A stretch of DNA of 64,000 nucleotides, from NCBI RefSeq assembly GCF_018350175.1, contig NC_058368.1, positions 79,052,001-79,116,000 on the forward strand, read 5' to 3'. The DNA is from Felis catus (taxonomy: Eukaryota). Positions 8,296 through 62,853 of this stretch are shown here, in pieces. The notes under the pieces were generated by a model. That model was not told where the DNA came from. It did not search any database and was given only the letters and a program-made list of their open reading frames with translations. The position numbers were made by a program, and so were the translations under genes. Every line of letters starts with the position of its first letter. Within the stretch, counting starts at the first letter, position 1.

Positions 8296-8890
8296 TGGAT
8301 GGACAGATGGATGGGTGGGTGGATGGATGGATGGATGGATGGAAGGATAGGTGGATGGAAGGAAGGAAGGAAGGAAGGAAGGAAGGAAGGAAGGAAGGAT
8401 AGATGGGTAGGTGGATGGATGGATGGATGGATGGATGGATGGATGGATGGAAGGATGGGTGAATGAATGGATGGATGGAAGGAAGGATAGATGGGTAGGT
8501 GGATGGATGGATGGATGGATGGATGGATGGATGGATGAATGGATGGATGGAAGGAAGGATAGATGGGTAGGTGGATGGATGGATGGATGGATGGATGAAT
8601 GAATGGATGGATGGAAGGAAGGAAGGATAGATGGATAGGTGGATGGAGGGATGGATGGGTGGATGGATGGATGGATGGATGGATGGATGGATGGGTAGAT
8701 GGATGGATGGATGGGTGGATGGGTGGATAGATGGATAGATGGGTGGCTGGATGGATGAACAGAGGGATAGATAAGTGGGTGGGTGATTGGATGGAGGGAC
8801 GGATAGATGTGTGGATGGGTGATGGAGTTAGGGATGGATGAATAAATGATTAAATAGATGGGGAGGACAGACACTTGGTAGGACGGATGA
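8296..8890 (+). repeat. Compound (GGAT)n/(GGAA)n microsatellite
   Basis: About 600 bp of GGAT/GGAA/GGGT tetramers. Explains ORFs 8197..8874 and 8411..8602. Confidence 0.97.
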
Positions 8891-34713: not shown

Positions 34714-35303
34714 TCCCACTTAGAAGTTCCTGGTGACATGTTGTATCTTGATTCCCGTTAAACACGTGCTTGTGTTAAGGATTCAAATATACTGGTTAAT
34801 TGTAAAACTTACCCTTGGCATCTTTTTTAGAAAGTCCTTTCTAAGAAGGTAATCTCCCCAGGACATGTTGGTGTTTTGTCACCCGTATACCATTCACAAG
34901 GAGCCGAGGCCTTTCCTATAGGAAGCATCCATATGCCACTAACTAGCCAAGGTCCCTGCCGGCCCTGGGGAGGGTCGGTTCAGTCCACACTTACTTCACA
35001 GCTGTATCAGGCCCGAGGAGTGCAGGCAGAGTATGTTCCGGAAAGCAGATCTGAAAGGCCCTCCCCAGGGCTTCGCCCTTCCCCTGTGCAGGTGGCTGAC
35101 CATCCCGGGCCACCTCGCTGCCCACCTGACGCCTTCCTCAACCGGTACACTTGGCCTCCAGCTGCGGGGTCTGGATGCGTCTCCTCGCTGGGAGTCCGGG
35201 GCTCTGGAGGGCGGAGGGAGGCAGGCGGGGTGCTCGCGGTGGGACCCCGGGGTAAGGAGGGGGCCTGGCTGACACCTGCGTCCCTCCCCTGTGCCCCCTC
35301 CAG

Positions 35304-36350
35304 CTCTGACCCGGCCCAGGCCGCACAGCGACGACTACAGCACCATGAAGAAGATTCCTCCCCGCAAGCCCAAGCGCAGCCCCAACACCAAGCTCAGCGG
35401 CTCCTCTGAGGAGATCGCGGGCGCGCGGCGCAGAGGCGGCCAGAGGTGCGCGCTCGGGGTCCCCGCGCCCCCCGCGCCCCCCGCGCGAGCCCCGCCGGAG
35501 CCCGACCCCGAGCCCGAGCCCGTGTACATCGAGATGCTGGGCCGCGCCGGCAGCCCTGAGCAGGCCGAGGCCGTGTACGAGGAGATGAAGTACTTCGCGC
35601 CCCCCGAGGCGTCCGCGTCGCCCCCAGCTCTGCCCAGTGACAGTCGGAACCCCGTCCCCGGGGAGGAGGGCGACGGGGGCTGCCCGGCCGCCGGGTCCTG
35701 CAGAGACGCGTGCGACATCCCGGCCCCTTTCCCCAACCTGCTCCCTCACCGCCCCCCGCTCCTGGTGTTCCCCCCGACCCCTGTCACCTGCTCCCCGGCG
35801 TCCGACGAGTCGCCCTTGACGCCGCTGGAGGTGAAGAAGCTGCCGGTGCTGGAGACCAACCTCAAGTACCCCGTGCAGGCCGAAGGCTCCAGCCCGCTGT
35901 CCCCGCAGCACGCCAGGAACCCCAAGAGCGACGGGGATGGGCCCGCGTCCCCCGGCCCGCCGGCGCCCGGCGGCTCGCCCCCCACGCCGCCGCCTCCCCC
36001 CGCGCCCCCGACCCCCCGGCCGCCCACGCACTTCGCCTTCCCCCCGGAGCCCGTGGGCGCCGCGGCCCGAGCGACAGCCGGCCCCGACACGCCCAGGGCG
36101 CACCAGCCGCCCCACTCTGCGCCCGCGGGGGGCGCGTGCAGCTCTCTCCCCAAGGCCCCCTACTCCCCCGGGAGGGCCGCCAGGCCCGAGCACCGCAAGG
36201 CCAGCGCCAGCTCGTCCTCCCCGGTGCCCTACAGCCCCCCGAACTGCAGAGCCCTCAGCAGCCCCCTGGACGAGTTGACCAGCCTCTTCAACTCTGGAAG
36301 GAGCTTGCTACGCAAGTCGGCGGCCGGGAGGAGAATCAGGGACCCCGAAG
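35304..36350 (+). CDS. MYO16: MYO16 large tail exon (1047 nt): NYAP-homology, Pro-rich region with YSTM, YIEM and YEEM motifs
   Basis: Inside ORF 35291..36568. Acceptor gtgccccctccag|CT, donor GAAG|gtaggc. Contains [22 protein letters not shown], typical of NYAP/MYO16. Phase 1-1. Confidence 0.96.
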
Positions 36351-36420
36351 GTAGGCGGAGAGGAGAATCGGGGACCCCGGAGGTAGGCGGGGAGGAGAAT
36401 CGGGGACCCCGAAGGCAGGC
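36328..36420 (+). repeat. 32-bp tandem repeat, about 2.9 copies, spanning the exon/intron boundary
   Basis: Units: gaggagaatcagggaccccgaaggtaggcgga / gaggagaatcggggaccccggaggtaggcggg / gaggagaatcggggaccccgaaggcaggc. Confidence 0.97.
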
Positions 36421-37016
36421 AAAAGAGAAACCCGCGCCGGGGTGCATAGCACACGGGTGTGCATCTCCGCCTCGGGGTCCGCGTGCCTGCACACGCGCAC
36501 ATCCTTGTCTGTTGCTTAAACACGGCTTTGGGGGACCGAGTGGCCATTCCGAGCAGATGCCCACTTAAAAACATCTTGTGCAGCCAGTGTGGGCCTCGTG
36601 ATATGAAAATACATAGTGCCAAAACTGGGCTCAGCAAAGTCTAGTGACTTCAAGGTGTTAAAGCAAGACGGAGCTTGAGCTGGTGCTCTTTTCGCTAATA
36701 ATATGCTTCGTGATAACCCGGAAGTGGTATTTTTGTAGCATCACATTGCCGATTCCCGCTGCATTCACAGCTCACCACGAGTGCCCGAGTGTCCTGGGCG
36801 GAGGTGACGCCACGTGACCACCTGTCCATTCACAACCTTAGACCGCATACTGCTCACCTTTGTATTGCTTCGGATGAATCATTTTTCTTTGGTTCGAGTA
36901 CCACCCCAGGGACATCTTAACGCAGTTCTGTTAACACCTGTATCTTCTCATTGAGTAACTCAGCCTAGGGGGGGGGGGGGGGTTGCACTGACCATCCACT
37001 CTGGCGGGCACAACAC

Positions 37017-56090: not shown

Positions 56091-57091
56091 GGGATCACTG
56101 GAGATGAACTGTTCTGCCACATGTAAAGTATAATAAAGCGAATTATGCTTTTTATCCCTTTAGAATAATTTGTTAGCCTAAAACTTGAGAAAGGCCAACC
56201 TAACAGCAGTCACAATCCACTGTGTCCCAGCACACAAAGATCAGAAGCAGCATGCTTATTCTGGGGTGAACAAAAATCCCCCAGTACGTTGGAGCTTTTT
56301 GAGGTCCCTGGGGAAGCAAGAGCCAATCACGGCTCACTGGCCAGTCCAACAGAGGGGTCCCGATTGGGGGAATGGGAGGTGGCGAGGGCCACACCTGACC
56401 CCGTGATGGCCAGTTGTGCTTGCTTGACATGCTCTGGTCTATGGCACTTGCTGTGTTTTACTTTATTATTCCTACATAATTAAAAAAAAAATCTTCATTT
56501 GGCTCTTTGGCCTAATATGGACAACAGTTTCCATGTTCATAGATCTCCAAGCCCCCGATAGGGGACGGACAGTGAACAATTAGGTAATGTGGTTAGTGTA
56601 CAGAATCCAGAAGTGGGTTTGTAAAGTTTAATCTTCCTAAATGGATAAGAACTAATTTTGTAATGATGCCGAAAATATATTTGTGATTTTTTTGCAACCT
56701 AGAGGGTTGGCTCAGCTCTGCTTAATTTAATAATTGAGAAAACTTCTGAATTTATTTCCATGCTTCTTTTAGGAAATAGTGCTCTCAAGACACACAGGGC
56801 TACAGTGACAGGTTATTAGACTACGACATCAAACTTTGTGTATAGATATGCTTGAAAATAACAAATCATGAAATTCATTATCACCACTTAATATTCCCTA
56901 TGATGTGTTAGAGTGTTGTGGCAAAATTCGGTGAATATTTTGTAGGCCGTAAAGTTAATTAACGGTGATTATGAATTTACCATACAATTAAGGTTTCATT
57001 TGGTAAGTTTTATTATTTTCTTCTACTATTGTATTAAATTATTCGGTCCATTTTATCAGTAGAGAATAATCCTTTCCGAAATTTGTTTTAG

Positions 57092-57250
57092 GTTTTGAGA
57101 CTAACATGAACCTAACTGGCCGAGATGATCCTGGTAGAGCAGAAATTGTATCCGAGACTCAAGATAGAAATGCAAATAACCATGGAATTCAATTATCTAA
57201 TTCACTCTCAAGTGCTATCACGGCTGAAAATGGGAATTCTGTCTCAAATG
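57092..57250 (+). CDS. MYO16: MYO16 distal tail exon (159 nt): [53 protein letters not shown]
   Basis: Acceptor atttgttttag|GT, consensus donor AATG|gtaagt. Stop-free and in frame with the previous exon (G+GT=Gly). Absent from the ORF track; found by reading. Confidence 0.93.
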
Positions 57251-62625: not shown

Positions 62626-62853
62626 AGGGGAGGAGGGGCTGCAGGAGGAGGGGCTCCTAGGAAGGGGAGCTGGGGGAGGGGAGCTGGGTTGAGAGATAGG
62701 GGAGGGGCTCTGAGGAGGAGGGGCTCCGGGAGGAGAGGCTCTGGGAGGGGGTTGCTGGGGAGGAAGGGCTCCAGGGGGGTTGGACTCTGGAAAGGACGAG
62801 GGGGTTTGGCGAGGGAGGGGCTGGGGGGAGGGGCTCCAGGAGGGAGGGACTCT
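62626..62853 (+). repeat. Degenerate ~15-bp G-rich minisatellite (approx. GGGAGGAGGGGCTCY)
   Basis: Recurring ggaggagggctcc / ggaggggctct / ggaggagaggctct / ggaggaagggctcc units. Confidence 0.75.

Follow-up and report, generated by a model that had tools for sequence, protein, structure and literature searches.

A minisatellite repeats the splice donor of a MYO16 tail exon in the domestic cat

The window analysed here is a stretch of 64,000 nucleotides from Felis catus (assembly GCF_018350175.1, contig NC_058368.1, positions 79,052,001 to 79,116,000 of the forward strand), in which tblastn places five exons of MYO16, of which the final two span roughly 35304-36350 and 57092-57250 (Table 1). 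The 5' end of the first of these two, the tail exon, is set by the AG at 35302-35303. Its translation is 100% identical to the Felis catus MYO16 model P0001 and 98% identical to a Prionailurus model, and contains the Pfam domains PF15439 and PF15452 (NYAP_N and the start of NYAP_C), which confirms the assignment of this DNA to the NYAP-tail exon of MYO16 made in an earlier, sequence-only reading. The acceptor AG of the next exon lies at 57090-57091, the intron between the two exons is 20,741 nt long, and the join of 36350 to 57092 keeps the reading frame. At the protein level the cat tail exon is only about 60% identical to its human counterpart. The codon at window position 36212 encodes Ser in the domestic cat and Pro in 16 of 16 other felid proteins and in hyena, a cat-lineage substitution in the proline-rich tail. 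The segment 35304-36500 is CpG-island-like (GC content 75% in the exon and 69% at the start of the intron, CpG observed/expected 0.87-0.94), and the gene body around this block has about 45% GC. Two other repeats were seen in the window, namely, a second GC-rich minisatellite with a 15/30-bp period in the following intron (62701-62772) and an intronic (TGGA)n array of 133 copies (8296-8826).

Table 1. Features around the repeated donor of MYO16 (positions in the window)
Feature	Positions	Strand	Description
MYO16 tail exon	35304..36350	+	1,047 nt, 75% GC; encodes the bulk of NYAP_N and the first part of NYAP_C
Unit 1	36328..36359	+	23 exonic and 9 intronic nt; conserved GT donor at 36350/36351
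Unit 2	36360..36391	+	GT pseudo-donor at 36382/36383; +32 nt, frameshift
Unit 3 (partial)	36392..36420	+	decayed GC pseudo-donor at 36414/36415; +64 nt, frameshift
Start of unique intron sequence	36415..36441	+	resembles the 14-nt insertion of run X16; ends in GCCGGG
Next exon	57092..57250	+	159 nt; tblastn 100%; premature stops at 57096-57098 and 57107-57109

The junction between the two exons is conserved. The junction peptide DPEG/FETNM is present in 17 of 17 felid protein models, and 146 of the 148 proteins that we examined contain the anchor, 135 of them in register with the donor at 36350 (donor 1), while the remaining 11 are exon-skipped, read-through or divergent non-mammalian models. 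As judged by this conservation across the felid and the anchored models, donor 1 is the orthologous splice site. The model P0001 itself departs from the conserved frame right after exon 57092-57250, with an unrelated 294 residues from the anchor versus 180 in other felids; its tail resembles the outcome of a skipped penultimate exon plus a frameshift, and probably reflects faulty annotation or assembly beyond the downstream end of the window. Two marsupial models, P0024 and P0042, omit the exon orthologous to 57092-57250, whose 159 nt keep the frame; skipping of this exon is thus a further conceivable result of splicing at the 57092 junction.

Across the end of the tail exon and the start of the intron, TRF detects a tandem repeat with a period of 32 at 36328-36420 (2.9 copies, 91% matches, no indels, score 158), and its best periodic identity, 56 of 61 positions, compares with a maximum of 34 and a mean of 28 when the surrounding 300 nt are shuffled 100 times. 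Each unit consists of 23 exon-derived and 9 intron-derived bases; relative to unit 1, 21 of the 23 exon-derived and eight of the nine intron-derived bases are identical in unit 2, and 22 of the 23 and six of the nine in unit 3. Consequently, the array contains three donor-like sites, AAG/GTAGGC (36350), GAG/GTAGGC (36382) and AAG/GCAGGC (36414), referred to as donors 1, 2 and 3, of which donors 1 and 2 share every base from -2 to +8. The sequence-only reading had described a 32-bp repeat of about 2.9 units at 36328..36420, with three donor-like sites of which the two GT sites agree from -2 to +6; TRF and the shuffles bear out the repeat, the sites have the positions and letters that it gave, and the identity extends two bases further than it had claimed.

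Minisatellites that begin with a unit lying across an exon-intron boundary have been described as a class before (PMC1557585). The cat array has the features of this class: its period of 32 is above the roughly 10 bp of a minisatellite unit, its first unit spans an authentic exon-intron boundary, as indicated by the tblastn exon end and the junction peptide at donor 1, and the donor is reiterated within the intron as one intact GT site (36382) and one GC site (36414). The class of donor-spanning repeats is thus already published, and the cat MYO16 locus is a further member of it. Among the matches listed by our literature search, which covered the main text of largely non-subscription papers, the cat MYO16 repeat itself was not found.

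We took the energy of the duplex with the 5' end of U1 as donor strength, a measure that ignores position -3, where A (as in donor 1) is commoner than G (as in donor 2). The energies are -9.2, -9.3 and -4.7 kcal/mol for donors 1, 2 and 3, respectively, and -6.5 and -10.2 kcal/mol for two other donors in the window. Folding in four windows predicts a mean unpaired value over -3..+6 of 0.56-0.66 at donor 1 and 0.60-0.81 at donor 2. As donor 2 is predicted to be as accessible as donor 1 or more so, RNA structure, on these predictions, neither favours nor protects donor 1. G-runs lie between the sites: units 2 and 3 carry GGGG where unit 1 has GGG, unit 2 has G-runs at 36370 and 36389, and the first 100 intronic bases contain four G-runs versus 0-2 at four other positions scanned, two of which are only approximately at an exon end. 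Silencers located between competing splice sites have been found, mostly in experiments on 3' sites, to inhibit the intron-proximal site, and many of these silencers include GGG motifs (PMC2095810). By analogy, we infer that G-run silencing may act at the cat MYO16 array.

Use of the downstream donors would shift the reading frame. Splicing from donor 2 (36382 to 57092) adds 32 nt and leads through a stretch of 16 residues to a TGA at 57107-57109, which lies 141 nt ahead of the 57250 junction, and splicing from donor 3 (36414 to 57092) adds 64 nt and leads to a TGA at 57096-57098, 152 nt before the same junction, past which the coding sequence continues in model P0002. A stop codon further than 50-55 nt upstream of an exon junction usually makes an mRNA an NMD substrate. 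Since both stops lie well beyond that distance, the mRNAs from donors 2 and 3 would be NMD substrates by this rule, and the frameshifts, the stops and the 141 nt that the sequence-only reading had given are reproduced by the translations. A protein that escaped would keep the WAVE-interacting region and the NYAP motif, which sit in the upstream part of the MYO16 tail (PMC7464383), and would lose the 158 residues that follow the donor junction. The prediction that three extra units (+96 nt) would restore the frame, on the other hand, is false for GT-type units, because each of these carries a TAG within its GTAG: three units pass through all three frames, so that a +96 donor has an in-frame stop just after the +64 site, and only a GC-type unit at that position would escape it. 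In a hypothetical allele with the 14-nt insertion described below and no extra unit, the GC site would fall at +78, where the reading frame is kept and stays open, although the site is weak. The frameshift peptide expected from donor 2 or 3 was found in none of the 148 proteins, but such homology-guided models are unlikely to list NMD forms, hence they cannot gauge donor leak.

We sampled 64 words from the 671 31-mers of 35900-36600 and searched for them in sequencing runs, of which 24 were listed. Fourteen DNA-like runs from eight studies contain all of the sampled words (1.00), and seven of them, which come from four studies (organisms A and B), carry no flag as a possible source; since the list is ranked by word share, it shows presence rather than fixation. 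An allele with one unit would lack 81-93 of the 671 words, and would contain all sampled words with a chance of about 0.0003 or less, and an allele with two units would lack 42-62 words, with a chance of 0.002-0.015. We aligned four runs (X10, X16, X19 and X24) to the locus, while runs X17-X20, with their small word shares, were left out as evidence. For X24, a run of raw poly(A) reads from an unstated tissue, 2% was covered; none of 12.9 million reads lies on the locus, which says nothing on donor use. X10 (organism B, 1.00 of words) gave only 29 short 90% matches in a proline-codon stretch, and is uninformative on copy number. The contigs of X16 and X19 are unspliced, have no joints or loose ends and cover one side of the intron; X19 contributes a single intronic contig, 36472-36600.

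The three contigs of X16 (depth 3-11) differ from the assembly within the array. The one covering 36116-36389 has two differences, both synonymous (36271 and 36295); a 62-nt contig aligns with 61 letters at 36360-36420 and has two differences; and the one starting at 36376 carries 14 letters inserted behind 36389, which turn an array unit into a unit of 46 nt, and one difference at 36529, which is common to X16 and X19. The differences at 36271, 36295 and 36529 are usable as allele markers. Judged by its length and mismatch count (its letters were not printed), the 62-nt contig fits an extra tandem copy of unit 2, for which mismatches at 36412 and 36416 and a clipped last letter are expected, and such a copy would explain why the first contig breaks at 36389. 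The word share of X16, 0.55, does not discriminate between the values expected with the extra copy (0.54) and without it (0.51). As X16 shows no difference at codon 36212, where it matches the Ser of the cat, its DNA is of the Felis type. As the contigs of this Felis-type run point to a longer array, the array probably varies in copy number or structure within Felis, so the variable copy number that the sequence-only reading had allowed for is probable, with the contigs of one run as its basis.

The sequence itself suggests how the array may have arisen. It would be the product of tandem duplication and slippage acting locally where the exon meets the intron: in this model, which is built on the X16 contigs, a single duplication of about 46-48 nt across the donor would have been the first step, the distal copy would have decayed from GT to GC, a loss of 14 nt via short purine-rich microhomology would have produced the 32-nt unit, and the 32-nt units would then have gained and lost copies by slippage. 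An alignment by eye matches the intronic part of the 46-nt unit to the unique sequence beyond donor 3 at about 16 of 21 positions. The motif GCCGGG occurs both just before and just after the array, and this pair is possibly a breakpoint microhomology. Duplication of AG/GT sequences is also a model of intron gain. A new micro-intron between units was rejected on inspection, as 32-64 nt is below the usual intron size and a pyrimidine tract is lacking.

The known members of the class behave in two ways. F7, LMNB2 and PDGF are spliced from the first donor alone, whereas two further sites are used in IFI6 and CBS, and in F7 minigenes the downstream copies work only once the upstream ones have been destroyed (PMC1557585). 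The array in F7 intron 7 resembles that of MYO16 in that its first unit spans the boundary and in its donor spacing (37 nt in F7 and 32 nt in MYO16). Like the cat array may be, the 37-bp F7 VNTR is polymorphic, and its copies serve as functional back-ups, but it has only four exonic nt per unit, 5-9 copies and identical donors, and its upstream-only use was shown experimentally (PMC1557585). The IFI6 (6-16) intron 2, LMNB2 and PDGF minisatellites belong to the same donor-repeating class, but have longer units and/or 10-25 copies (PMC1557585). The 31-bp VNTR at CBS exon 13/intron 13, c.1444_1467+7(16_21), comprises 24 exonic and 7 intronic nt per unit (PMC2630376). CBS and cat MYO16 both have exon-rich units (24+7 and 23+9 nt), and neither unit length is a multiple of three. 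The title of the primary CBS paper reportedly ties this VNTR to reduced CBS activity. The CBS array is polymorphic, like that of F7, and two of its pseudo-sites are reported to be used (PMC1557585); it differs in having 16-21 copies, compared with about three, possibly four or more, in cat MYO16, where the third site is GC. The donor competition inferred in the sequence-only reading thus has a direct human precedent in CBS, which makes it less novel and keeps donor leak plausible. A tail-truncated splice form already exists in MYO16, namely, Myo16a as opposed to Myo16b, but Myo16a is without the NYAP motif, which the donor-2 product would keep (PMC7464383).

We consider it fairly probable that the array is a donor-spanning minisatellite of the F7/CBS kind in which donor 1 is dominant, with at most a small leak to NMD. 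Under this reading, most transcripts by far, about 90% or more, would be spliced from the most upstream donor, which would be favoured by upstream-first selection and the G-runs between the sites; donor 2 would be a back-up whose leak may yield frameshifted, NMD-eligible mRNA at a level of a few percent; donor 3, having lost its GT, would be close to silent; and the array would be selectively near-neutral and without dosage control. The F7 array, where downstream copies can act as donors yet do so only after loss of the first, makes such dominance probable by analogy. Counting against it, donor 2 is predicted to equal donor 1 in U1 pairing and to be no less accessible, and its exon context, purine-rich and 23 nt long, is close in length to the 24 exonic nt of CBS, which leaks, and unlike the 4 of F7, which does not. 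These points favour the main rival reading, a competition of the CBS type, in which donor 2 takes more than 10-20% of splicing and diverts it to NMD or to a protein without its last 158 residues; the identity of the two donors from -2 to +8, the two extra sites used in CBS, with its 24+7 nt unit, and in IFI6, and the two stops 141 and 152 nt before the junction would all suit this possibility. We nevertheless find it unlikely, as F7, LMNB2 and PDGF use only the first donor (PMC1557585), and the 148 proteins without a frameshift peptide are a weak test in the same direction. We regard as more doubtful still a scenario in which a polymorphic VNTR with 32- and 46-nt units, whose exon-rich copies let donor 2 compete, gives alleles that differ in their loss to NMD, with the change of GT to GC and the G-runs being compensatory. 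Such an array would be a splicing QTL, comparable to the tandem repeats (spl-TRs) whose length is associated with splicing level across individuals (PMC10078293).

The number of units in the usual cat allele is a related question. The X16 contigs fit four or more donor-like sites, and the direct join of unit 2 to unit 3 is needed by only 8 of the 671 31-mers, leaving a chance of about 45% that the sampled words missed it, so a longer array such as that of X16 might be the usual form, and the three-unit form a collapsed assembly or a rarer allele. Yet X16 differs from the assembly at 36271, 36295 and 36529, each of which had a chance of about 95% of being sampled, and the 14 top runs hold all 64 words; the single-base differences thus mark X16 as another haplotype, which need not describe those runs. 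We hold a longer usual allele to be improbable, and it alters the unit count rather than the class. An assembly artefact over a locus with a single unit, which the sequence-only reading had named as a possible refutation, has a negligible probability in view of the complete word content of the 14 runs; in addition, the X16 contigs independently cross units 1, 2 and 3, and the units differ from each other.

If donor 1 is dominant as we propose, the array should have little effect on dosage. Myo16-null mice have faster actin turnover in spines, though the reviewed tests revealed no cerebellar phenotype in them, anatomical or behavioural (PMC7464383). Given this mildness, a small loss of MYO16 dosage is unlikely to matter much. 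The idea that copy number tunes MYO16 dosage is accordingly graded as weak: units beyond the third should add little, because F7 picks the most upstream intact site, and CBS and IFI6 use only the next two. As it stands, the cat array is of little import, a short and probably near-neutral example of a published class. It is, however, a compact test case, with one intact rival donor 32 nt away and equal U1 pairing, and its 23 nt of duplicated exon context put it at the CBS end of the class, so it suits the question of whether exon context decides if the copies leak, as in CBS, or stay unused, as in F7. If alleles differ in leak, the array would be a candidate expression variant of a neuronal gene in cats, with an effect limited by what the mouse knockout shows, and if it does act as a splicing QTL, it would serve as a natural experiment on what makes arrays of the CBS type leak and keeps those of the F7 type from doing so.
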